Origin: Phycisphaerae bacterium
Lineage (GTDB): Bacteria > Planctomycetota > Phycisphaerae > UBA1845
Length of the DNA: 64,000 nucleotides
Direction of reading: 5' to 3'
NCBI GenBank assembly: GCA_963666835.2
Contig: CAXXGO010000001.1
Span: forward strand, 1,312,001 to 1,376,000
The notes under the pieces were generated by a model. The model did not search any database and was not told the DNA's origin. It saw nothing but the letters and a program-made list of their open reading frames with translations. Below are positions 1 to 62,222 of the stretch, piece after piece. A program made the translations under genes and the position numbers. How positions within the stretch are numbered: the first letter of the stretch is position 1; the number at the start of each line of letters is the position of its first letter.

Positions 1-144
1 AACTTCCTTGACCACATCGAGAACCGCCTCGGCCTCGAATGGCGAACAATGGAGTCCGTGCTTGATTTCGTGCAAAAACTTGGCATCCAGTGTCTTCGAG
101 TCAAGACGCTCAAGCCTCTCCTTCTTCTTGTTCCGCAGCCCCAT
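1..144 (-). CDS. DUF1670-like protein A, N-terminal part (partial)
   Basis: Same sequence as the 5' end of 7342..8193 (MGLRNKKKERLERLDSK...). Confidence 0.85.
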   Translation of the reverse strand, partial: MGLRNKKKERLERLDSKTLDAKFLHEIKHGLHCSPFEAEAVLDVVKEV

Positions 145-209
145 GCGTAGTCCTCCCAAGTCCCGAAGTCCGTTACCAAGGTACCCGGGTGGACATATGT
201 CAGGAAGGT
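1..209 (-). mobile_element. Left end of a second copy of the DUF1670-pair insertion element (truncated by window edge)
   Basis: 1-209 is the reverse complement of 7277-7485; ORFs 8..211(+) and 7275..7478(-) translate identically; sub-terminal IR at 188-202, CT core (AG on +) at 210-211. Confidence 0.9.
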
Positions 210-211
210 AG

Positions 212-423
212 GCGTTACGTCCCGCAGCCCAGGGTTGCCGCGGAGCGGCCACCCTGGAGTGACGGTCACATCAAAGACCAACCCTGACGGGGTTGCGACA
301 CTGTTCAACCCACTTCGAGGTTGGTCTGGGAAGGGGCTTTGTGACTCAGGGTGGCACTGCGTGGCTGCGCCGCTTCGTTTACCCTGGGCCTTGTTGTGAA
401 ACACCTTTGGCGTATGTTCGGAA
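212..423. repeat. REP-like palindromic cluster (ACCCTGGGC / AACGCCTTCGGCGT family), including an empty paralogous target site at 391-423
   Basis: 282-423 is near-identical to 7153-7276 joined to 9190-9206; a further partial copy lies at about 47067-47159. Confidence 0.8.
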
Positions 424-5382: not shown

Positions 5383-5918
5383 GGGTGGCATGGGCCAACT
5401 TGTTGGCTTGTGGGATCGCGCCACGCGTTCCCGGGGGTGAACCGCGGTCGCAACTTGGCGACAGGTCTTGTGCCTCGATCGTGCCCGACACCCGTGGACG
5501 CTGCGCTACAAAGGGGCCGTCGTAATCAGTACGGCAAGCGCGAGCGACTCGCCCTTGGTCGATATGCAGTCCCTTTAGGGACGTGGGCATGTAGCCACGG
5601 GTGGAGCGTAGCGGAACCCGTGGGCGAGGTTTGCCTCCCAAGCCCGCCCGTCCCGAAGGGCTGGCGGACGGTTACCGCGAATCACGCGAAGATCTGGCGG
5701 AATAGCGAAGTGTCGGCAATACGGCACTATCGACCCAGGGGCAAGCTGAAAGCGTCCATGCCGAAGCGCGTAATCTGGCGGTGTGCGGCGGAATGGCTTG
5801 CGCGCGAGCTACGCTATGCCCATGCCACGCGCCATGGCAGGTCTCGTTCCTCGACCGTGCCCTACGAGGGACCGACGCAAGCTCCGAACGGGTGGCCCGT
5901 GGCTTTAGCCGTGGGGGA
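5383..5918. repeat. Intergenic mosaic of several REP-like families
   Basis: Units matching 13165-13200 (inverted), 1212-1243, 911-940, 434-533 and 7122-7152. Confidence 0.7.
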
Positions 5919-7041: not shown

Positions 7042-7276
7042 CGGCAGGTCTCGTGCCTCGACCATGCCCTACGTAGCTGCACTGCTCAAGAGTAGTGGCA
7101 CACCCGAGAACCCAGGTGTGGACGGGTGGCCCATGGCTTTAGCCGTGGGGGACCTGACGGGGTTGCGACGCTGTTCGACCCACTTCGGGGTTGGTCTGGG
7201 AAGGGGCTTTGTGACCCAGGGTGGCACTGCGCGGCTGCGCCGCTTCGTTTACCCTGGGCTTTGTTGTGAAACGCCT
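7042..7276. repeat. REP mosaic; the last unit is interrupted by the DUF1670 element
   Basis: Units at 7042-7072, 7079-7102, 7122-7152 and 7153-7276; sequence resumes at 9190 (TCGGCGTATGTTCGGAA). Confidence 0.8.
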
Positions 7277-7341
7277 ACCTTCCTGACATATGTCCACCCG
7301 GGTACCTTGGTAACGGACTTCGGGACTTGGGAGGACTACGC

Positions 7342-8193
7342 ATGGGGCTGCGGAACAAGAAGAAGGAGAGGCTTGAGCGTCTTGACTCGAAGACACTGGA
7401 TGCCAAGTTTTTGCACGAAATCAAGCACGGACTCCATTGTTCGCCATTCGAGGCCGAGGCGGTTCTCGATGTGGTCAAGGAAGTTTACTTCCCGTACCTC
7501 GATGAACACGCCGGCAAGGCCCCACCTGGCAAGATTGGCTTGGTCGTCGTCGACGCCGACGAGCCTGCCGGGAAACCCGTCTGCGAATGCCAGAAGCAGA
7601 ACGTGTGCCTGACAATCCACCGAGGTGCAGAGGATGATCGACTTCTGGAGGAGGAGGGGCCGGTCGGCTTTCGACAAGCCCGCATCCCACCGCTTTGCCA
7701 AGAAGCCCTGAGTCAAGGTGGGCTGCTCACGCGCGAAGATCTGGCCTACCGGATGTTCTTTGTTACGCCACGAACCATTACGCGCGATTTGAACGCTCTC
7801 CGGAGTGCGTATCCCGGGGTGCTTATTCCTCTGCGAGGAATCGTACACGATCTTGGTCCCGTGTTGACTCATCGCAGCCAAATCGTGCGTTTGGCTCTGG
7901 AGGGAAAGACGACCTCACAGATCTGCACCATGCTTCGCCATTCACCGGCGGCTGTAGCGAACTACGTCTCGACATTCACCCGTTGTGCGCAGTTGGCAAA
8001 GAAAGGTATGCAGGTCGGGCAAATCGCCTTCCTTCTGCGGAGAGGCAAGCGGTTGGTACAACAGTACCTTGATCTCCTCGACGAATGCGCGGTCGACAAG
8101 AACATGGGCTATCACCTGGAAGAACTGATGCGCCTGGGTTGTTGTGGCGGGGGGAAAAAGGAGCTCGGTGAAGAGGGAAGATCCGATGGGTAA
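7342..8193 (+). CDS. DUF1670-like protein A
   Basis: GGAGG RBS; motifs EALSQGGLLTREDLA, RGIVHDLGPVLTHR and HSPAAVANY, recalled as typical of DUF1670. Confidence 0.8.
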   Translation: MGLRNKKKERLERLDSKTLDAKFLHEIKHGLHCSPFEAEAVLDVVKEVYFPYLDEHAGKAPPGKIGLVVVDADEPAGKPVCECQKQNVCLTIHRGAEDDRLLEEEGPVGFRQARIPPLCQEALSQGGLLTREDLAYRMFFVTPRTITRDLNALRSAYPGVLIPLRGIVHDLGPVLTHRSQIVRLALEGKTTSQICTMLRHSPAAVANYVSTFTRCAQLAKKGMQVGQIAFLLRRGKRLVQQYLDLLDECAVDKNMGYHLEELMRLGCCGGGKKELGEEGRSDG

Positions 8194-8959
8194 GCCGCGA
8201 GACACCAACAGCAGAAGATACAGTCCCCTGCAGGCGAAAACGCTGAGAAACGTGTTGGCTCACCGCATCGAAACGGAGTTTCCACGCATAGGCGGCCCAC
8301 GGATTCGCAACCTGTGCGCAGAGATGATCCTTGAGGTCATCGGTGCCCACGTTCTCCCGAAGGAGCATATCCAACATGGTCAGATACTCTGGATGGCGAT
8401 CAGCAGCGCAGATCCCCCGAGTCAGCGTCGACGGATTGAGGATACCGATCTGCTTCCGGTGGTCTTGGACGTGAGTACCTTCGAGGATATCGAGATGCGT
8501 TTGCAGAAGAAGGGACGTGGAGAGTTGCTCTTACAAAAGAGCTTGAGGTTATGCCGACAGGCGTACGAACAAGGGGGCGTTCTGTCCAACTCTGATCTCT
8601 CGGAGTTGTTAGCAGTCAATGCGTCGGACGTCTCGCGATTGTTGGCGGCGTACGAACGCGAGACCGGTCAGATCGTCCCACGTCGCGCTACTGTCCACGA
8701 TGTCGGCACAGGGCTTACGCACAAACGGATCATCTGTTTCAAACATTACGCAGAAGGCAAAGCGGCTAACGAAGTGGCTCGGGAAACGTACCACAGCCTT
8801 GAGGCTGTGGATCGTTACCTGGGCCAGTACGATCGCGTCCGCCACTGCCATCTTCAGGGGCTGACGGCAAAGGAGACAGCCCATGCTTTAGGTTGCAGCA
8901 TCTTCCTGGTTCAGGAGTACCTGGAGATCGATCATGAGTTGGAGGGCCAGCATGCTTGA
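8186..8959 (+). CDS. DUF1670-like protein B
   Basis: Overlaps gene A stop; motifs QAYEQGGVLSNSDLS, RATVHDVGTGLTHKRII and HSLEAVDRY. Confidence 0.8.
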   Translation: MGKPRDTNSRRYSPLQAKTLRNVLAHRIETEFPRIGGPRIRNLCAEMILEVIGAHVLPKEHIQHGQILWMAISSADPPSQRRRIEDTDLLPVVLDVSTFEDIEMRLQKKGRGELLLQKSLRLCRQAYEQGGVLSNSDLSELLAVNASDVSRLLAAYERETGQIVPRRATVHDVGTGLTHKRIICFKHYAEGKAANEVARETYHSLEAVDRYLGQYDRVRHCHLQGLTAKETAHALGCSIFLVQEYLEIDHELEGQHA

Positions 8960-9168
8960 CTCGATGGCACAGCACGTCAGACTTGTGTGTGCTGGTCGAG
9001 AGGACAGGGCTCTGCTGAGGAGCACCCCGAGCGCTCGTACCAGTGCCGGGACAGGCGCGGGAGTCTGCATGCACGGCGGGCTCTCGCTCTCCCTGGCCTG
9101 TTCTGGCTCCCAAGCGACAAACCTTGGGGGTCTGGGGGCAAAGCCCCCGGTGATCGCCACACGGTCGC
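8960..9168 (+). ncRNA. Candidate structured non-coding RNA in the element's right end
   Basis: Consecutive stem-loops read by eye: CTCGA...TCGAG (8960-9000), AGGACAGG...CCTGTTCT, GCGGGAGTC...GGCTCTCGC, CCCAAG...CTTGGG and GGGGGC-AAA-GCCCCC; expression unknown. Confidence 0.35.
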
Positions 9169-9290
9169 GGTGGACATATGTCACTATCTTCGGCGTATGT
9201 TCGGAAGATGTACGTCGCACGAAGACCAGCGGCAGGTCTCGTTCCTCGACCATGCCCTACGAGGGGAAGCAGAAGCGCGCTTGCGAGCGG

Positions 9291-11114
9291 TTAGCTCTTC
9301 TTGCGGGTCGCGCGGCGGCGGTCGAGTTCTTTGAGCACGCGCTTGCGCAGGCGGATGGCGTCGGGGGTGACTTCCACGGCCTCGTCGTCGGCGATGAACT
9401 CCAAGGCCATCTCCAGCGGCATCTCGCGGGGGGGGCGGAGGACGACCGTTTTGTCGGCCGCGGCCGCCCGGATGTTGGTCATCTTCTTCGCCCGGCAGAT
9501 GTTCACTTCGAGATCGTTGTCGCGGCAATGCTCTCCGACTATCTGGCCTTCATAGACCTGGGTCCCCGGGCCGACGAAGAACTCGCCGCGGTCGGCCAGG
9601 TTGTTTATGGCGTATCCCGTTACCTGTCCCGGTTCGTTGGCCACGAGGACTCCGTTCTGCCGACCGGGAATGTCGCCGCGGAAGAACTCGTACTCATAGA
9701 AGTTGTGGTGCATGATGGCCGTGCCGTTGGTGGCGTTGAGCATGCGGTTGCGCAACCCAATCAACCCACGTGCCGGGATGGTGAACTCGATCAAGGTCGA
9801 GTCGCCGCGCGATTCCATGGTCTTGCAGATGCCGCGCCGCCCGCCCATTAACTCCATAACAGTTCCGACATGTTGTGACGGCACATCGATTACGCAGAGC
9901 TCGATCGGTTCGGTTTTCTTGCCCGCCAGTTCGCGATAGATGACCTTCGGTTTGCCCACGGCCAGCTCATATCCCTCGCGCCGCATGTTCTCAATCAACA
10001 CGGACAAGTGCAGCATCCCCCGACCGGATACGTGCATCTCCTCGGGAGTGTGTCCCGGCTCGACCCGCAGAGCGACGTTGCTCTGCATTTCCTTTTCCAG
10101 GCGATCGCGCAGGTGGCGCGACGTGAGGAACTTGCCGGACCGCCCCGTAAACGGAGAGTCGTTTACGCGGAAGGTCATGTGGAGCGTCGGTTCGTCGATA
10201 CGGATGATCGGGAGTGGTTCGGGGTTATCAGCGCAGGCGATGGTGTTGCCGATGTCGACCGTCTGCAGCCCGACGACCGCGCAGATGTCACCGGCCGGGA
10301 CCTCTTCGACCCTTGCTCGTCCCAACCCATCGAAGGTGAACAGCTCTCCGATACGTTCCTTGTGTTGCGTGCCGTCCCGGTGGATCAAGGTCACGTCACT
10401 ACCGGCCCGGATTGAACCGGCGAAGACGCGACCGATACCGATTCGACCGACGTAGTCGTTGTAGTCGAGCGTCGTGACGAGCATTTGCAGCGGGGCGTCG
10501 GGTTTGACGTCGGGGGGCGGGACATGTTCGAGAATCACGTCGAACAGAGCGAAGATGTTGTCCGGGCGTTCGTTTGCGTTCATTGCCGCGAAACCGAGTG
10601 TGGCCGACGTGTAAACGGTGACGAATTCAAGGGCGTCATCATCGGCGCTCAGCTCGATGAACAGATCGAGCACCTCGTCGAGCACGCTGTCAGGTCGGGC
10701 GTCGGGGCGATCGATTTTGTTGATTACTACGATCGGTCGGAGATGGTTCTCGAAGGCCTTGCGCAGGACGAATCTCGTTTGCGGCATCGGTCCTTCGAAC
10801 GCATCCACCAGCAGCAGGCAGCCGTCGGCCATTTTCAGGACCCGCTCAACCTCACCGCCGAAATCAGCGTGGCCTGGGGTGTCGACGAGGTTGATCTTCG
10901 TGCCGCGGTAATTGATTGCGATGTTCTTGGACAGGATTGTGATGCCGCGTTCGCGCTCGATATCGTTGGAGTCGAGGATCCGCTCGCCCGAGACCTGGGC
11001 CGCTCGAAACTGGCCGCACTGGCGGAGCATCTGATCGACCAGGGTGGTCTTTCCGTGGTCGACGTGGGCGATGATGGCGATGTTACGAATAGCGGTGTTC
11101 TTCAAGAGCGGCAC
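9291..11114 (-). CDS. typA: Translational GTPase TypA/BipA
   Basis: [44 protein letters not shown] and BipA C-terminus. Confidence 0.97.
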
Positions 11115-11858: not shown

Positions 11859-12002
11859 GCCGGCTATGATCGCGGGTGAGCCGGAATGCTGCAAGCATTT
11901 GGAGCAAGATCGCCGGCTGGCCCGCCTCTTTGGAGGTGGGGAGCCCCATTCTGTGTGTTGCGGGAGATACTGCAGATGCCTGCGCTACGCGAAGGGGTCC
12001 CC

Positions 12003-12080
12003 CACGTCCAGACGGCATTACCTCGGGCGATTCTCGACGGATTGGACTGTGCGCGAAAGTCAAAAGGACGTGGGCCACCC
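12003..12080 (+). repeat. 78-bp direct repeat, copy 1
   Basis: Matches 13079-13156 with one mismatch. Confidence 0.9.
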
Positions 12081-12969: not shown

Positions 12970-13078
12970 GCCCGGCCGTGCATGGATCGGCTATGCCTCC
13001 TCTTGGGCGCCGGGTGGCTTATCGCTTTAGCGGTGGGGAACTCGTTCGAGTGTGAGCAGACATTGTCATCGGGTCCAT

Positions 13079-13156
13079 CACGTCCAGACGGCATTACCTC
13101 GGGCGATTCTCCACGGATTGGACTGTGCGCGAAAGTCAAAAGGACGTGGGCCACCC
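13079..13156 (+). repeat. 78-bp direct repeat, copy 2
   Basis: Matches 12003-12080. Confidence 0.9.
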
Positions 13157-43761: not shown

Positions 43762-43835
43762 GGGCGATTAGCTCAGTTGGCCAGAGCGCCTGCTCGACAC
43801 GCAGGAGGTCACAGGTTCAAGTCCTGTATCGCCCA
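43762..43835 (+). tRNA. tRNA-Val(GAC)
   Basis: Cloverleaf: GGGCGAT/ATCGCCC acceptor stem, GCTC/GAGC D stem, CCTGC-TCGACAC-GCAGG anticodon arm, TTCAAGT T loop; CCA not encoded. Confidence 0.95.
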
Positions 43836-44130
43836 GTTGTAAACCGCTTGTGAGGCAAGCACTTATGGCGGTTTTCTCATGCGCACTTGCTTTCCGGGAC
43901 TAGGCGCTTGAGGTTTCCATACCAGGCGTTCGGACCGCGTTTTCTGGTCCGTAGCGCGCGTGTTCTGCGGACCATTCGTGCGCTCGCCGCCTGCTGGTAT
44001 TAGCAGGCGTTTCTAGGCAATCGACTTCGCATCACCCGCTGGCCGTTCGCGACCGCCACGAGCGGCCAAACCGCCACTGCAACGGTCAACGCTGGGATCG
44101 GACGATTGGCGACGTTGCGTGCTTCCCTGC

Positions 44131-46098
44131 CTACCCATCGTCTGCCGGCAGTGGGGAGCCTGATTCTGCGTCACCAGACGACGTGTAGGCCTGGCCCGGC
44201 TGGTTCGGCATGTCCGGGTATCGCAGGCGCAGCAAGCCTTCTCGGACCATCGGCTTCAGAAACCGATCCTGGAGCCCGGCTGCTGCGCGCTCCATCAGCT
44301 CGGCAATGAGTGCCGCCGTGAGGTATCGGCCTCGGCACAAGGCTTCGACGATTTCCCGAGTCGTGTCCGGCGCCAGGCGACGCCCCTGGCGTGCGGGGGC
44401 CGCGATCCGACGCAGATCTTCCAGGACCTCAGGGGCTAGGTCGTGAAGCGCTCGCGGCGAGTTTCCCTGACAATCGCGCTGGGAGCCGGTCGCCTCATGC
44501 GGAGAGTCTCCGGGTTTATGTGGGGAGTCTCCGTCCTTATGTGGGGAGCCTTCGTTCTTATGTGGGGAGTCTCCCGTCTTGTGGGGGGACCCGTCCGGTC
44601 CGCTCCCCTGGACATCCCCAAGGCGATACATTGCGCCTCGTTTTCGCCCCTTCTGCACCAGAAAGCCGCGTTTCGCGAGGTGCTGCAGCATCTGCGTCAG
44701 AGCGGCAGGATGTTGGTCCGTGATTTCCCGCATGCGCGCGTTGGTCACCTGCTTCTCCGCGTGGGCCGTGACCAACGCTTGAACCTCCTGTTCACCCAGG
44801 CACTCGAACTCGCCGCCAAAGCGTCGCTTAAGGTCATCCAAGACTTCGTCGGGCATCAAGCTGACCATGGGCATCTCAAGTAGGACCCTCGACGGTCGAT
44901 CGCGTTCCTCAATGCGCGGGTCACGCCAGTGTTGCGATCGCCAGCCCTGTCGAATCTTGTCAATGCCGGAGCCGGCCTTCTCGGCCGCTCCGATCATCAG
45001 GAACATCGTCTGCAACGCTTTGTTGCGACACTCGCTGACTCCGCCCGCGAGCAGCTGGTCGTGCGAGACGAGCAACGTTCCTGGATTCGACACCTCGAAC
45101 CGATCACGGAACTTGTCGATGACGATACCGCCCTCGCCGCGGTAATCCGCATGGATCATGGCGTTAACCAGGGCCTCACGAATGGCTTCGTGGACGATGG
45201 TCTCGCCGCGACGGAACAGATCCGATTCAAGTTGAAACGGGAGTTTCAGGTCTGCCGCCAATCGCTGAACAACGCGGAGGTAGAACTGAAGAACATTGGC
45301 CTCCCAAGTGCCGTCCGCGTGCAACCGATCCGTCCATCGCACATCAGGATCGTCGGATAGGTGCTCGCGGTAGTCGACATGATACCCGGGAACCGCCTCC
45401 GGCAAGCGGACCACGTCCACTCTGCCGAACATTAGTAGGCCCGCTACCGTGAGCCCTTCTTGGTCGCTGTTTCGGTCCCTTCGCCAGCCGCCCAGTTTCG
45501 TCAAGAAGCCGGTCAGATCCTCACCCAGCCATGGATGCGTCGGTGTTCTCGCCGAGAAACGCTGCCGATACTGCTGGACGCTTGCTTCGTCCAGATCATC
45601 GAGCCCGAAACCCTCCAGAATCAGGGAATCAGCGGGCTCATCTGATCGGTCGGCCAGCATCCGGCTGACTTCCTGCTCTGAACAGTGATAATCCCCCTCG
45701 TAGTCTCGCCGATACGTCCCGATCAGCGGGTTCTGCCCGACATACACTGGCCGCTGCTGCCGCGTTGCTCTGGGAACCCGGATCACCAGCACAGACTTAC
45801 CGTTCCCGGGCTGTTCCGCGACATCACCATCGGTCAGCAGGTTGATGCTGATCTTGCCTCGGTTGTTGACCGTGTTCCAGAAGTCTTGTCGCATTCGACC
45901 CGGATCGGCGAGGCCGGTCACTTGGCCGTCCGATGCGACGCCCAGCACGATCACGCCGCCGTCCGTGTTCGCCATAGCGCTGTACGTTTCCCAAAGGCTC
46001 TTAGGCAATCCACCTTTGGCCGACTTGAACTCCAGATCGCAGTCTTCTTGCAGGTCAAGCGGTACGGAAGAAGGAGCTGGGTCCGTGGAACGTGCCAT
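44131..46098 (-). CDS. AlbA_2 (Schlafen-like) + HATPase_c_4 + HTH protein
   Basis: LEFKSAKGGLP...AMANTDGGVIVLGV; REALVNAMIHADY; SNPG; EKAGSG. Confidence 0.85.
   Translation of the reverse strand: MARSTDPAPSSVPLDLQEDCDLEFKSAKGGLPKSLWETYSAMANTDGGVIVLGVASDGQVTGLADPGRMRQDFWNTVNNRGKISINLLTDGDVAEQPGNGKSVLVIRVPRATRQQRPVYVGQNPLIGTYRRDYEGDYHCSEQEVSRMLADRSDEPADSLILEGFGLDDLDEASVQQYRQRFSARTPTHPWLGEDLTGFLTKLGGWRRDRNSDQEGLTVAGLLMFGRVDVVRLPEAVPGYHVDYREHLSDDPDVRWTDRLHADGTWEANVLQFYLRVVQRLAADLKLPFQLESDLFRRGETIVHEAIREALVNAMIHADYRGEGGIVIDKFRDRFEVSNPGTLLVSHDQLLAGGVSECRNKALQTMFLMIGAAEKAGSGIDKIRQGWRSQHWRDPRIEERDRPSRVLLEMPMVSLMPDEVLDDLKRRFGGEFECLGEQEVQALVTAHAEKQVTNARMREITDQHPAALTQMLQHLAKRGFLVQKGRKRGAMYRLGDVQGSGPDGSPHKTGDSPHKNEGSPHKDGDSPHKPGDSPHEATGSQRDCQGNSPRALHDLAPEVLEDLRRIAAPARQGRRLAPDTTREIVEALCRGRYLTAALIAELMERAAAGLQDRFLKPMVREGLLRLRYPDMPNQPGQAYTSSGDAESGSPLPADDG
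44496..44596. repeat. In-frame 21-bp tandem repeat, about five units (xxDSPHK)
   Basis: TTATGTGGGGAGTCTCC units at 21-bp period. Confidence 0.85.
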
Positions 46099-46574: not shown

Positions 46575-46626
46575 TGCTCGACACGCAGGAGGTCACAGGT
46601 TCAAGTCCTGTATCGCCCAGTTGTAA
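46575..46626 (+). repeat. attR-like duplicate of tRNA-Val 3' half
   Basis: Identical to 43791-43842. Confidence 0.9.
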
Positions 46627-46669
46627 CCCCTTTCGAATAAAGCACTTATCGTGGGTTGGGCTCTGCTTA

Positions 46670-47159
46670 AGGTAGGTTGGGCTCCGCCCGACGCTGGGCT
46701 TCGCCCGTTCTTGAGGTGATCGCGCATCCGGGCTGATTAACTGCGAAAGCCAAGTAGGTCGAGTTCTGCCCCACGCTGGAGTTTGGCACTTAACTAGTCA
46801 ACGCAGCCAAGTAGGTCGGGCTCTTCCCAATGGTACCAACCTCGTCAGGCAGTCGTGCGGTAATCCGTCCCGAAGGGGACGAAGGCATGTAGCCACGGGT
46901 GGAGCGAAGCGGAACCCGTGGGGCCGGTTCGCCTCCACGTGCCCACGTCCCGAAGGGCCGGAGGACGGTTTCAGGGATCGCCCGAAGGCCCGAATGGCCA
47001 CAGACAGCGGACGATAGTCGGCTTCGGACGTGTTGCCACCGTGCCGCAACACGATGTTGCGCGCGTTGTTCGACCCACTTCGGGGTTGGTCTGAGAAGGG
47101 GCTTCGTGACCCCAGGCGGCACTCCGCGGCTGCGCCGCTCCGTTTGCCCCTGGGCTTTG
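46670..47159. repeat. REP mosaic (GTAGGTCGGG family and copies of the 434-533 and 282-390 units)
   Basis: GCCAAGTAGGTCG occurs twice; matches to REPs near window start. Confidence 0.7.
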
Positions 47160-47465
47160 ATGGGTAGCGCGTTCGTCCCACTCCTGCATGGCGGCGGTTG
47201 CCGCCACGCACAGGGGGCAAAACCACATATCCACAACACCGCGTTTCCGCTGTTATCCGGCGTGCGACGGTCTTTCCCGCTTGACGAATCTTGGCGAATA
47301 CGCCGAGAACTCGGTATCATGCCGGGAATATCTGCTCGTCGCCGCGGCTACCTCGTTGTCCCGCTGGCAGCGTAGACGCTGGGGGGAATCGGCATGGATG
47401 TTCCCGGGCTCTGTTCGTTTTCTGTCTTCGAGTTTCTTGCCGAAACTGCTTTGAGGTAGATCGCG

Positions 47466-58859: not shown

Positions 58860-61800
58860 TTATTCGACGCACCCAAGCACACTGTCGCAGGTCATGCCGG
58901 CCGGGCAGGCCGTGTGGTCGGGAGTGTTCAAGCACGTATCTCCCTCCTCCCAGCAGGCGTCTATCGTGCAATCAACGCCGTCGTCACAGTCGACCAGCGT
59001 GCCGCTTTGGCAGGTCTGATTCGCATCGCACGTTTCCAGGCCGTTACAGAATGCCCCGTCGTCGCAATGAGTGTCGCTTTCGCACTCGACGCACCCATAC
59101 GTCGTGCTGCAGATCCAATCCCCCAGGCACATCCAGTCGCGAGGGACGTTGTAGCACACGTCCGCCGTTGTATAGCAGGCGTCTTCCGTGCATGCGATGC
59201 CGTCGTCGCAGGTCTCGGGCGGCCCGGACTGGCAGTCAAGAGCCAGATCGCAGTACTCCACACCGTCGCAGAGCACGTCGTTGTCACATGACTCGTGATC
59301 GAGGGTGTGCTCACAGGTGTTCGTGGCCAGGTTACACGTGTCCACCGTGCAGCCTACCTCATCATCACAGTGGGCGTCGTTATAGCACTCGACACAGCCG
59401 AGCGTCGTGCTGCAAACGGAATCCCCGGCGCACAGCCAGTCGCAGGGTACATTGTAGCACACGTCCATTGTTGAATAGCAGGCGTCTTGCGTGCACTCGA
59501 TGCCGTCGTCGCAGGTTTCGGGAGGGCCGGACTGACAGTCAAGCGCCGGATCGCAGTACTCCACACCGTCGCACAGCACGTCGTTGTCACATGACGCGTG
59601 ATCGAGAACATGCTCGCAGGTGTTCGTGGCCAGATTACACGTGTCGACCGTGCAGCCGACGCCGTCATCGCAGTGACCGTCGCCGTAGCATTCAACGCAG
59701 CCGAGCGTGATACTGCAAACCCAATCCCCGGCGCACATCCAGTCGCGAGGCAGATTGTAGCACACGTCCTGCGTGGCATAGCAGGCGTCTTCCGTACACT
59801 CGATACCGTCGTCGCAGGTCTCGGGCGGGCCGGACTGACAGTCAAGAGCCGGATCGCAGAATTCCACGCCATCGCAGAGCACGTCATTGTCACACGATGC
59901 ATGATCGAGGGCATGTTCGCAGGTGTTCGTGGCCAGGTTACAGGTATCGACCGTGCAGCCGACCTCATCATCACAGTGAGCGTCGTTATAACACTCGACA
60001 CAGCCGAGCGTCGTGCTGCAAACGAAATCCCCGGCGCACAGCCAGTCGCAGGGCACATTGTAGCACACGTCCATTGTTGAATAGCAGGCGTCTTGTGTGC
60101 AGTCGATGCCGTCGTCGCAAGTCTCGGGTGGACCGGACTGGCAGTCTAGAGTCGGATCGCAGAATTCCACGCCGTCGCAGAGTACGTCGTTGTCACATGA
60201 CGCGTGATCGAGGGCATGCTCGCACGTGTTCGTCGCCAGATTACACGTGTCGACCGTGCAGCCGACCTCATCATCACAGTGGACGTCGCTGTCGCATTCG
60301 ACACATCCGTACGTCATACTGCAGATGAAATCCCCCTCGCACATCCAATCTCGCGGCAGGTTGTAGCACGTTCCCTGCGGTCCGTAGCAGGCGTCTTCGG
60401 TGCACTCGATGCCGTCGTCGCAATCGATGGGGGTGCCGCTTTGGCACATGCCCATGGCGTCGCACGTTTCTTCACCGTTGCAGGTATCGCCGTCGTCGCA
60501 ATCCTCGTCGTCGTCGCACTCGATGCACCCGAGTGTCGTACTGCAGATCCAGTTCTCGGGGCACATCCAATCGCGAGGCACGTTGTAGCACACATCCGCC
60601 GTTGTATAGCAGGCGTCCTCCGTACACTCGATGCCGTCGTCGCAGGTTTCGGGCGGGCCGGACTGGCAATCGAGAGTCGGATCGCAGTATTCCACGCCGT
60701 CGCAGAGCACGTCGTTATCGCACGACGCATGATCGACGGCGTGCTCACAGGTGTTCGTAGCCGGATCACACGTGTCGACCGTACAGCCAACGGCGTCATC
60801 ACAATGGGCGTCGCTGTAGCACTCAACACAGCCGAGTGTCACACTGCAGACCCAATCCCCGGCGCACATCCAGTCGCGAGGCACGTTGTAGCACACGTCC
60901 TGCGTGGCATAGCAGGCGTCTTCCGTACATGCGATACCGTCATCGCAGGTCTCGGGCGGACCGGACTGACAATCAAGAGCCGGATCGCAGTACTCCACGC
61001 CGTCGCAGAATACCCCGTTGTCACACGATGCATGATCGAGGGCATGTTCGCAGGTGTTCGTGGCCAGGTTACACGTGTCGATCGTGCAGCCGACCCCATC
61101 ATTACAGTGAGTGTCGTTATAGCACTCGACACAGCCGAGCGTCGTGCTGCAAACGAAATCCCCGGCGCACAACCAGTCGCAGGGTATATTGTAGCACACA
61201 TCCGCCGTTGTATAGCAGGCGTCTTGAGTACAGTCGATGCCGTCGTCGCAGGTCTCGGGCGGGCCGGACTGGCAGTCGAGAGTCGGATCACAGAATTCCA
61301 CACCGTCACAGAGCACGTCGTTGTCGCATGACGCATGATCGAGCGCGTGCTCGCAGGTGTTCGTGGTCATATTACAGGTGTCGATCGTACAGCCGACCCC
61401 ATCATCACAGTGGGCGTCGCTGTCGCACTCGACGCATCCGTAAGTCACGCTGCAGATGAAATCGCCCTCACACATCCAATCTCGCGGCAGGTTGTAACAC
61501 GTTGCCTGCGGTCCGTAGCAGGCATCTTCCGTACACTCAATGTCATCGTCGCAATCGACGGCCGTGCCGGCTTGGCACATCCCACTCGCATCGCACGTTT
61601 CTTGGCCGTTACAGGCATAGTCGTCGTCGCAATCCTCGTCGTCGTCGCATTCGATGCACCCGAGCGTTGTGCTGCAGAACATACCTGTCGGGCACATCCA
61701 ATCGCGAGGCACGTTATAGCACACATCCGCCGTCGTATAGCAGGCGTCTTCGGTACACTCGATGCCGTCGTCGCACGTCTCGGGCACGCCGGCCTGGCAG

Positions 61801-62222
61801 GTGCCCTTAACGCACTGCTCAACACCGTTGCAGAACACCCCGTCGTCACATTCAAGGTCTACGTTGCAGTCGACGCAGCCGAATTCCGTACTGCACACCT
61901 GCTTGCTGGGGCATAGTGCGTCAACGGGTACATACACACAGAAGCCTTCAATCAGGTCGCAGATGTCTGTTGTGCAGGCAATGGAATCGTCGCAGTCTTT
62001 GTCCACTGCGCACTTCTCTGATGACTTACAATCGGAGGACACGACCGGGGCACCAGAGTCATCGGCGCCCGACAAGGTGGGCTCGGGGGAAGTTCTTCCG
62101 AGATCGGCTGCGACGACGATCGAAGTCACCGCAGTGAATATCGTCAGATACAGCATTATCGCGCATGCCCTGCGCCACCCATTTACATGATGTCGATCGC
62201 GTTCAATCGCTACGTTTTTCAT
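58860..62222 (-). CDS. Secreted Cys/Asp-rich tandem repeat protein
   Basis: GAGGAG RBS; CDDGxxCTxDxC repeats in 101-aa and 74-aa units. Confidence 0.88.
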   Translation of the reverse strand: MKNVAIERDRHHVNGWRRACAIMLYLTIFTAVTSIVVAADLGRTSPEPTLSGADDSGAPVVSSDCKSSEKCAVDKDCDDSIACTTDICDLIEGFCVYVPVDALCPSKQVCSTEFGCVDCNVDLECDDGVFCNGVEQCVKGTCQAGVPETCDDGIECTEDACYTTADVCYNVPRDWMCPTGMFCSTTLGCIECDDDEDCDDDYACNGQETCDASGMCQAGTAVDCDDDIECTEDACYGPQATCYNLPRDWMCEGDFICSVTYGCVECDSDAHCDDGVGCTIDTCNMTTNTCEHALDHASCDNDVLCDGVEFCDPTLDCQSGPPETCDDGIDCTQDACYTTADVCYNIPCDWLCAGDFVCSTTLGCVECYNDTHCNDGVGCTIDTCNLATNTCEHALDHASCDNGVFCDGVEYCDPALDCQSGPPETCDDGIACTEDACYATQDVCYNVPRDWMCAGDWVCSVTLGCVECYSDAHCDDAVGCTVDTCDPATNTCEHAVDHASCDNDVLCDGVEYCDPTLDCQSGPPETCDDGIECTEDACYTTADVCYNVPRDWMCPENWICSTTLGCIECDDDEDCDDGDTCNGEETCDAMGMCQSGTPIDCDDGIECTEDACYGPQGTCYNLPRDWMCEGDFICSMTYGCVECDSDVHCDDEVGCTVDTCNLATNTCEHALDHASCDNDVLCDGVEFCDPTLDCQSGPPETCDDGIDCTQDACYSTMDVCYNVPCDWLCAGDFVCSTTLGCVECYNDAHCDDEVGCTVDTCNLATNTCEHALDHASCDNDVLCDGVEFCDPALDCQSGPPETCDDGIECTEDACYATQDVCYNLPRDWMCAGDWVCSITLGCVECYGDGHCDDGVGCTVDTCNLATNTCEHVLDHASCDNDVLCDGVEYCDPALDCQSGPPETCDDGIECTQDACYSTMDVCYNVPCDWLCAGDSVCSTTLGCVECYNDAHCDDEVGCTVDTCNLATNTCEHTLDHESCDNDVLCDGVEYCDLALDCQSGPPETCDDGIACTEDACYTTADVCYNVPRDWMCLGDWICSTTYGCVECESDTHCDDGAFCNGLETCDANQTCQSGTLVDCDDGVDCTIDACWEEGDTCLNTPDHTACPAGMTCDSVLGCVE

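Follow-up and report, generated by a model that had tools for sequence, protein, structure and literature searches.

A DUF1670 gene pair is the only gene content of a site-specific mobile element with inset palindromic ends and a hairpin target in a Phycisphaerae genome

We studied a 64,000-nucleotide (nt) stretch of the genome of a Phycisphaerae bacterium (lineage UBA1845; assembly GCA_963666835.2, contig CAXXGO010000001.1, positions 1,312,001 to 1,376,000 of the forward strand), hereafter called the window, which carries a 1911-bp unit whose only genes, orfA and orfB, encode two proteins of the DUF1670 family (A and B; Table 1). The inverted repeats of this unit, each of 15 bp, are inset by 7 nt from the left end and by 4 nt from the right end, and the dinucleotide CT flanks the unit on both sides (7275-7276 and 9188-9189). 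This architecture had been described in an original prediction made from the letters alone, and it can be read directly in the sequence. The two genes overlap by 8 nt and leave non-coding ends of 65 nt on the left and 228 nt on the right (8960-9187), the latter having been correctly noticed but put at about 210 nt. On comparative grounds, we conclude that the unit is a real, recently active, widespread and site-specific element.

Table 1. Positions of the element, its parts, its target and related copies (window coordinates unless a contig, C, is named)
Feature	Position	Strand	Remarks
Mobile element, 1911 bp	7277..9187	+	six genome copies align over exactly 1-1911; identity ends there
Left 209 bp of second copy, cut off by the window edge	1..209	-	inverted repeat 1-235 versus 7251-7485
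Left tip ACCTTCC	7277..7283	+	kept across relatives; complementary to the Shine-Dalgarno region of orfA
Left sub-terminal inverted repeat TGACATATGTCCACC	7284..7298	+	contains the palindrome GACATATGTC
orfA, 283 amino acids (aa)	7342..8193	+	DUF1670 and HTH_23
G6A5 homopolymer run	8149..8159	+	candidate slippage site joining A to B; B in the +1 frame
orfB, 257 aa	8186..8959	+	DUF1670; N-terminal domain and three helix-turn-helix-like units
R1 structured RNA module	8973..9122	+	covariance model 130.7 bits; starts 14 nt after the orfB stop
GC-rich hairpin after R1, CTGGGGGC AAA GCCCCCGG	9132..9150	+	similar hairpins 3' of R1 at other loci
Right sub-terminal inverted repeat	9169..9183	+	reverse complement of TGACATATGTCCACC
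Right tip CTAT	9184..9187	+	right tips of relatives: nnAT
Palindromic repeat (REP-like) with target at its 3' end	7153..7276	+	direct-repeat family D6; precedes each of 30 empty sites
Left half of target hairpin, AACGCCT	7270..7276	+	ends in the CT core; empty site AACGCCTTCGGCGTA
Second CT and right half of target hairpin, CTTCGGCGTA	9188..9197	+	kept in 6/6 copies, one being CTACGGCGTA
Unoccupied variant target AACACCTTTGGCGTA	400..414	+	in a neighbouring REP-like repeat copy
IS110-family copy	C7:69788-71613		
IS110-family copy	C1:~1128880-1130700		
IS110-family copy	C6:~1566810-1568640		
IS110-family copy	C6:~1727580-1729410		
IS110-family copy	C6:~2672730 to contig end		

In the whole genome (6.02 Mb, seven contigs), six full-length copies of the element were found on three contigs, and these carry 0-4 substitutions (none in three copies, three in one and four in two). 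The copy that is truncated by the window edge lies in full at C1:1310299-1312209 on the minus strand. DUF1670 is confined to the element copies in this genome (12 matches, two for each of the six). The outer flanks differ among all six copies, and an assembly artefact, which had been named as a possible source of the duplicate, is thereby excluded. The second copy had been credited with a different flank, which is true of the outer sequence, but the immediate flanks are the same target in 6/6 copies, reading AA(C/T)GCCT on the left and CT(T/A)CGGCGTA on the right.

The target common to all six copies, AACGC-CT-TCGGCGTA, forms the 3' end of a repeat resembling the repetitive extragenic palindromes (REP), and two subtypes of this repeat occur among the six left flanks. 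Uninterrupted AACGCCTTCGGCGTA was found in 30 genome copies, every one at the end of a REP-like repeat, indicating that a filled site equals the empty site plus 1911 nt and a second CT. The target forms a hairpin with the stem ACGCC/GGCGT and the loop TTC, and the insertion point lies after the first loop base, at the 5' stem/loop boundary, in constant orientation. The recent mobility that had been proposed is borne out by the six near-identical copies and the 30 empty sites. The genome also retains a remnant left by deletion of the element, namely 39 bp of the right end alone, fused at a GGTG microhomology to the left arm of a REP copy. Repeats of the D6 family, which ends in the targeted hairpin, lie in the window at 283-430, 7153-7276 and 47048-47171, and there are about 36 targets of the D6 type genome-wide. 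A second REP-like family, D8, occupies 441-533, 5577-5669 and 46875-46967.

We also consulted public sequencing runs in the form of their assembled contigs. Depth over the element exceeded that over unique flanks, although depth in these contigs does not give copy number, and one contig skipped 1913 nt (with a 28-nt side and three mismatches), an event indistinguishable from the 30 paralogous empty sites. No direct excision or insertion event appeared in this material, as might be expected if the unit were an immobile repeated regulatory cassette or an artefact of assembly. We consider this explanation hardly credible, given that the six copies end sharply at the same bases in outer surroundings that all differ, that 30 empty paralogous sites exist and that the same pattern recurs in other genomes, where most relatives lie on contigs of about element length.

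The family is large and patchily distributed. We identified 1453 near-length relatives of B, and a comparison with 1.84 billion cluster representatives at 50% identity gave 970 matches at E <= 0.001, 527 at <= 1e-10 and 79 at <= 1e-30. Metagenomes yielded 356 relatives, 80 of which were kept. An alignment-based genome scan detected 56 loci with 32-70% identity, titled Planctomycetota, Acidobacteriota, Thermoanaerobaculia, Anaerolineales (Chloroflexota), Verrucomicrobiota, Nitrospiraceae (Nitrospirota), Lentisphaerae and others; a single-protein scan of the same genome contigs gave no match, and neither did a protein search of a plasmid collection. DUF1670 was present in 5/401 genomes of a phylum sample, and a Pfam control match lies in the archaeon Methanosarcina. 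The relatives are labelled 'DUF1670 domain-containing protein', 'hypothetical protein' or 'CsgD family transcriptional regulator' in their sources, and our literature search found no paper on DUF1670 (PF07900, IPR012872). Among the listed relatives that give a contig size, 115 of 118 sit on contigs of <=4.2 kb; such contigs of roughly element length point to a multi-copy repeat that breaks assemblies. Long-read genomes hold several near-identical copies, four in the genome G401 and at least three in G402.

To compare the ends, we used 137 sources, consisting of the window and 136 loci, which include 51 complete elements of 1722-2297 bp (that of the window and 50 others). The ends were found to be shared by the six genome copies and by the 50 complete elements from other organisms: the family left end reads A(C/G)C(T/A)TC(C/T)N followed by GACATATGTC, and the right end reads CGGT(C/G)(A/G)GACATATGTC followed by nnnAT. 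GACATATGTC is a perfect palindrome, and the inverted repeat around it often extends to 17 bp in relatives. All 12 representative elements examined carry the A-then-B pair and no other conserved open reading frame (ORF). The common family target is GCCCC-TNC-GGGGC, and its variants retain CC...GG atop a GC-rich stem. The gene pair, the GACATATGTC repeats, the asymmetric tips and the hairpin target thus travel together across several phyla.

Both flanks were available for 50 elements, whose rows are partly non-independent because some are copies within one genome. The flanking dinucleotides matched as CT/CT in 31, TT/TT in 4, and GT/GT, CG/CG and GC/GC in one each, and were mismatched as CT/CA in 5, CT/CG in 4, and CT/CC, CC/CG and TA/TG in one each. 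The first flanking base was therefore repeated in 50/50 and both bases in 38/50, and the left copy carried T in 10 of the 12 mismatched cases. This pattern fits a 2-nt core whose second position varies between donor and target or, equally, a 1-nt duplication together with an element-borne T.

Searches with the two proteins returned only DNA-binding units beyond DUF1670 itself. Both A (129.3 bits, E 1.8e-37) and B (168.7 bits, E 1.6e-49) exceeded the Pfam gathering cut-off of 25 for DUF1670 (PF07900), and they align with each other at 26% identity over 250 aa (E 3e-16), in keeping with the paralogous, overlapping, DUF1670-like pair that had been predicted. The other Pfam matches of A and B were to helix-turn-helix (HTH) families only, and the best match in NCBIfam, the models used by NCBI in naming transposases, was the IS630 N-terminal HTH at 12.7 bits against a cut-off of 100. 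The Pfam and NCBIfam searches of both ORFs accordingly place neither in a classified transposase family; 'unclassified' here rests on Pfam, NCBIfam and the literature, with ISfinder outside the comparison. A DEDD (RuvC-like) or Transposase_20 domain had no Pfam or NCBIfam match in A or B, and a DDE (RNase H-fold) transposase domain was absent by Pfam, NCBIfam and fold searches of A/B. For the serine-recombinase domain there was no Pfam match and the fold rows covered the HTH alone; for the tyrosine-recombinase R-K-H-R-H/W-Y domain there was no Pfam match and none among the fold rows; and for the HUH/Y1 nuclease there was no Pfam match in either protein, Y1_Tnp genes being present in the genome outside the element. 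No element ORF other than A and B had a relative. A profile search of PDB sequences returned chance-level rows only, PADLOC and PHROGs searches of the element proteins gave nothing of note, and the ESM Atlas yielded HTH_23 clusters at 0.81, which we treat as a lead only.

The structural model of B (predicted local distance difference test, pLDDT, 77.6) comprises three helices and a beta-hairpin at the N-terminus, followed by three HTH-like units. That of A (pLDDT 59) has the same order of helices and strands and was left out of the fold search, and the predicted complex of A with B scored 0.02. The VIA fold searches with B aligned it with sigma region 4, LuxR/GerE, DeoR, the DnaA DNA-binding domain, Pax paired domains, the HTH of Tn3 resolvase and the CAP domain of Topo VI-A/Spo11. 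The enzymes of the last group cut with a 2-nt stagger; this lead (B 108-169, Z 6.1 and 5.6) was rejected, as no conserved tyrosine lies there. A spacing of H, R, G, HS and Y in B 178-211, reminiscent of the tyrosine-recombinase consensus, was likewise rejected, since the stretch is an HTH of the sigma-region-4 type: residues 177-225 of B, which include the conserved H, R and Y, can be superposed at 1.3-1.7 A on sigma region 4. Fused DUF1670 proteins with two modules (504-546 aa) or three modules (930-952 aa) also exist, as does a chimaera in which a single module is apparently fused to a UvrD fragment. A known catalytic domain was found in 0/9 DUF1670 proteins checked (three two-module, five three-module and this UvrD chimaera).

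A conserved run near the overlap of the two genes suggests how a fusion of A and B could arise. In 14/14 elements printed, a homopolymer run (G4-8A4-7 or A8-9) lies 30-40 nt before the A stop, and the B frame is open from the run onward. Two of the four copies in G401 have G7A4 instead of G8A4, which yields fused A-B frames of 599-602 aa, and the element at locus L034 encodes an A-B fusion of 555 aa. Fusions encoded in DNA are rare (4 longer proteins versus 1453 of near length). We infer that slippage on the run would make some A-B fusion, in a scheme of OrfA plus OrfAB like that of IS3/IS1. Another signal lies at the left end, where the tip is a perfect 6-8-nt complement of the orfA Shine-Dalgarno (SD) region in 15 of 43 distinct 5' regions (6 bp in the window element); in about 12 further regions the pairing spans 8 positions and includes one G-U (tip ACCTTCTA with TAGGAGGT). 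Positions 7-8 of the tip and the bases that precede the SD covary (CCA/TGG, CCT/AGG, CCC/GGG, CTA/TAG). Such pairing would block translation of transcripts entering from outside, and blocked translation of read-through transcripts is a common trait of insertion sequences. A scan of the element for promoters and terminators stayed at chance level.

The 3' non-coding end contains a structured RNA module, R1. We noticed it as nearly invariant blocks common to elements whose proteins are only ~60% identical, and a 31-nt R1 core was present in 72/137 sources, always on the gene strand. RNAalifold predicted 44 pairs from 42 aligned sequences. When the terminal repeat was set aside, 41 pairs were left, in which 94.8% of cells were paired, compared with 80.5% in shuffled alignments and 42-46% with slid partners; compensatory changes occurred in 30 of the 41, and the covariation score was 0.46 compared with 0.19 (shuffled) and 0.08-0.12 (slid). 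None of 500 shuffles reached any of the five measures. The fold contains many G-U pairs, which assign it to the sense strand, and the whole 3' end of the window element folds with z = -3.3. An Rfam 15 search of the element gave no match to R1 and one chance-level match inside orfA (E 0.88).

R1 is neither constant in the family nor limited to it. It was found in 39/51 complete elements (31 by motif and 8 more by the covariance model); in the remaining 12 the full module is missing, 11 having none and L055 a 23-nt partial match. The 11 include all ten short elements (1722-1755 bp), and G401, with its four short copies, has no R1 match anywhere in its genome. Since short R1-less copies multiply there, R1 seems dispensable for the spread of the DUF1670 element, as far as comparison can tell. 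Two B-type single-module proteins, P0126 (400 aa) and P0122 (470 aa), end in a C-terminal CHC2 (DnaG-type) zinc ribbon, which sits where other elements hold the R1 RNA. A 2.26-2.30-kb subfamily (L103, L112, L113, L120, L127 and L139) carries ~350 additional nt that separate R1 from the right inverted repeat, and L120 has a second weak R1-like match of 24 bits.

Outside DUF1670 elements, an orphan R1 of 123 bits at C6:796186-796333 (L175:1501-1648) is followed by a hairpin and then by the IR-like GACAATTGTC, with no DUF1670 genes; it is probably, from this arrangement, the right-end relic of another lineage of DUF1670 elements. The same origin was considered for R1 near other insertion sequence types and rejected, as a scan of 17 other loci, allowing 2 mismatches, showed nothing IR-like. 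R1 occurred in 10/151 genomes of the phylum sample, and a transposase or integrase ORF lay within the 3-kb locus at 8/14 loci and was not found at 6/14. The neighbours include IS110 (L189, sense, directly downstream), rve (L191, L196 and L202), ISL3 (L193, partial, and L199), IstB of IS21 (L201) and a phage-type integrase (L195); the genome G403 has two further R1 loci just downstream of rve genes. R1 stands in both orientations relative to the neighbouring transposase genes. Judged by this distribution, R1 is a discrete, exchangeable module, which has built up in the ends of insertion sequences that are not related to one another.

The most conspicuous of these carriers is an IS110-family element resident in the same genome (DEDD_Tnp_IS110, 409-aa frame), 1826 bp long and present in five near-identical copies. 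Its right end of ~520 nt contains the R1-type RNA in 5/5 copies (69 bits over the full model), antisense to the transposase. G402 is one of two other genomes in which R1 lies beside IS110 transposases; there the R1 of a DUF1670 element matches that next to an IS110-family transposase at 92% identity over exactly 139 nt, and the similarity ends at the borders of this stretch. These findings, together with the IS1111-like anatomy, could mean that R1 is a bridge- or seek-type guide RNA and that a co-resident DEDD recombinase moves the DUF1670 element, which we nevertheless regard as very unlikely. A guide would be expected to match its substrates, but R1 and 5'-end segments showed no common register of complementarity to their own target or ends; the own-flank matches of R1 are 5-9 nt long and scattered, a comparison with little power owing to the low target diversity. 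The single-stranded motifs of R1 are invariant even though tips and targets vary, the module also accompanies rve, ISL3 and IS21 genes in either orientation, and 12/51 complete elements, with the four-copy short subfamily in its R1-free genome, do without the full RNA. Moreover, the ends of the resident IS110-family element, TAATCG-CATGAAAGGC on the left and GCCTTTCATG-GATAGGGTCCG on the right, with the sub-terminal repeats CATGAAAGGC/GCCTTTCATG, bear no relation to the ends of the DUF1670 element.

We then compared the element with known systems. Serine-recombinase elements such as IS607 use a 2-nt crossover core, and the DUF1670 element resembles these and other 2-nt-stagger recombinases in its 2-nt core or duplication, whereas no serine-recombinase catalytic domain was detected in it; only the Tn3 resolvase HTH aligns, with Z 5.1-5.2 over 46 residues. 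IS3 and IS1 produce OrfA plus OrfAB by programmed frameshift. With them the DUF1670 element has in common the overlapping ORFs, a conserved homopolymer run before the overlap, an open downstream frame and natural fusions; it differs in that it has no DDE/RNase H domain, that B is in the +1 and not the -1 frame, that A and B are mutual paralogues, that the repeats are sub-terminal and that the target is a hairpin. The 2-bp duplication and the HTH_23, HTH_29 and paired-like DNA-binding units recall IS630/Tc1-mariner, but the element lacks a DDE domain, does not end in terminal repeats and targets a hairpin loop in place of TA.

The closest likeness in anatomy is to the IS1111 group, for which two reports describe sub-terminal repeats, a short left and a long right end, a right-end RNA and specific targets (PMC11208160; PMC11187229). 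Like members of that group, the DUF1670 element has inverted repeats inset from asymmetric tips, with a short non-coding stretch on the left and a long one on the right; a dinucleotide core flanks it on either side, it enters REP-type palindromes in one orientation, and its right end contains a structured RNA. The DEDD/RuvC-like recombinase is, however, replaced by two multi-HTH DUF1670 proteins, the RNA lacks detected guide-like complementarity, and one subfamily has no RNA. The element is not a member of IS110/IS1111, because the DEDD recombinase is missing. The IS1111-like ends of the original prediction thus hold as anatomy, but the 3' non-coding end is no plain IS1111 hallmark, being a portable RNA that is absent in the short subfamily. 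As a separable RNA module within an insertion sequence, R1 finds its closest parallel in ssr9 of ISPpu9, a small RNA gene that occurs both inside copies of the insertion sequence and alone (PMC12288879). The two are different RNAs, R1 spans unrelated insertion sequence types, and no flanking boxes were identified for R1.

We propose, with a probability of about 0.6, that the element is an autonomous, site-specific insertion sequence of an unclassified family, in which the DUF1670 pair would carry out or direct recombination. OrfA and OrfB would bind the palindromic GACATATGTC boxes at both ends, probably as a pseudo-dimer, with an A-B fusion probably also produced by slippage on the G6A5 run. 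They would bring both ends and the target hairpin into one complex and perform, or at least direct, a break-and-join reaction with a 1-2-nt stagger, a probable intermediate being an excised circle with the junction right end-CT-left end. Pairing of the left tip with the orfA ribosome-binding site would keep transcripts that read in from outside silent, and R1 would be an accessory module without which movement could still occur.

Several results weigh against this proposal. All functional evidence is comparative, and DNA cutting by A or B is a prediction only. Foldseek of B against PDB gave no match at E <= 0.001, and the VIA fold searches of B, which scarcely probed its N-terminal 105 residues, gave only DNA-binding HTH/winged-helix rows (Z <= 6.1). 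Neither a catalytic fold nor a catalytic motif was found in B, and A was modelled too poorly for a judgement. The joint of right end, CT and left end, or another excision product, was not listed in the assembled contigs of the public runs. Finally, IS110-family genes are present in 4/4 genomes tested (this one and three others), so that help in trans may be possible. The original prediction had named the DUF1670 pair as the recombinase of an undescribed site-specific family; the unclassified, site-specific element stands, whereas for the recombinase itself the fold searches gave HTH units only.

These points could also be explained if the DUF1670 proteins merely recognise the ends and target, or regulate, and a host or co-resident enzyme (Xer, a topoisomerase or a transposase) does the cutting. 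Some mobile elements are known to rely on Xer recombinases of the host, for which they encode a small activator; A and B resemble pure DNA binders, no catalytic domain appears even in the two- and three-module fused forms, and other transposases occur in all genomes tested. We consider such helper dependence unlikely, though much less so than movement by an IS110 recombinase, for the same ends, target type and gene pair recur across many phyla and the helper would have to be universal. The IS3-like OrfA/OrfAB layout is typical of transposases and not of accessory factors, and the two paralogues share dense invariant polar residues, among them an H-S pair, two tyrosines and, in the segment that separates the first HTH from the second, the motif P-x-R-x(4)-D-x-G-x-x-L-T-H-(R/K).

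A bolder version of the autonomous proposal is that the DUF1670 module represents a new class of DNA recombinase, a multi-HTH pseudo-dimer or fusion without an RNase H, serine, tyrosine or HUH domain, which would recognise a 10-bp palindrome and insert into a hairpin loop with a 1-2-nt stagger, R1 being a portable structured RNA among unrelated insertion sequences. We hold this tentatively, at somewhat under even odds.

The window contains further repeats. About nine tandem units of 303 nt (58952-61816), 60-92% identical, probably encode a protein with repeated domains of ~101 aa, and four 21-nt tandem units resembling CCTYATGYGGRGAGTCTCCG lie at 44493-44597. A 55-nt repeat with 98% identity (43791-43845 and 46575-46629) looks to us like the 3' half of a tRNA, and an 86-nt direct repeat with 97% identity occupies 11995-12080 and 13071-13156, 1076 nt apart. 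The insertion itself adjoins a 607-aa ORF on the minus strand (9291-11114), so placed that the element is just downstream of its 3' end; the N-terminus of this ORF presumably resembles a translational GTPase of the TypA/BipA type.

New here are the conserved homopolymer run with its natural A-B fusions, the tip-SD pairing and the R1 RNA module. R1 is a lead in its own right, an RNA with strong covariation and no catalogue entry that passes from one type of insertion sequence to others unrelated to it. The system is small and defined, with two genes of ~0.8 kb, 20-bp ends and a 13-nt hairpin target, and a compact, orientation-specific inserter that targets hairpins could serve as a tool. The well-studied transposon families rest on few catalytic folds, and the DUF1670 family carries only helix-turn-helix proteins; either these proteins hide a new chemistry of DNA transfer, or the element exploits a universal host enzyme in an undescribed way.

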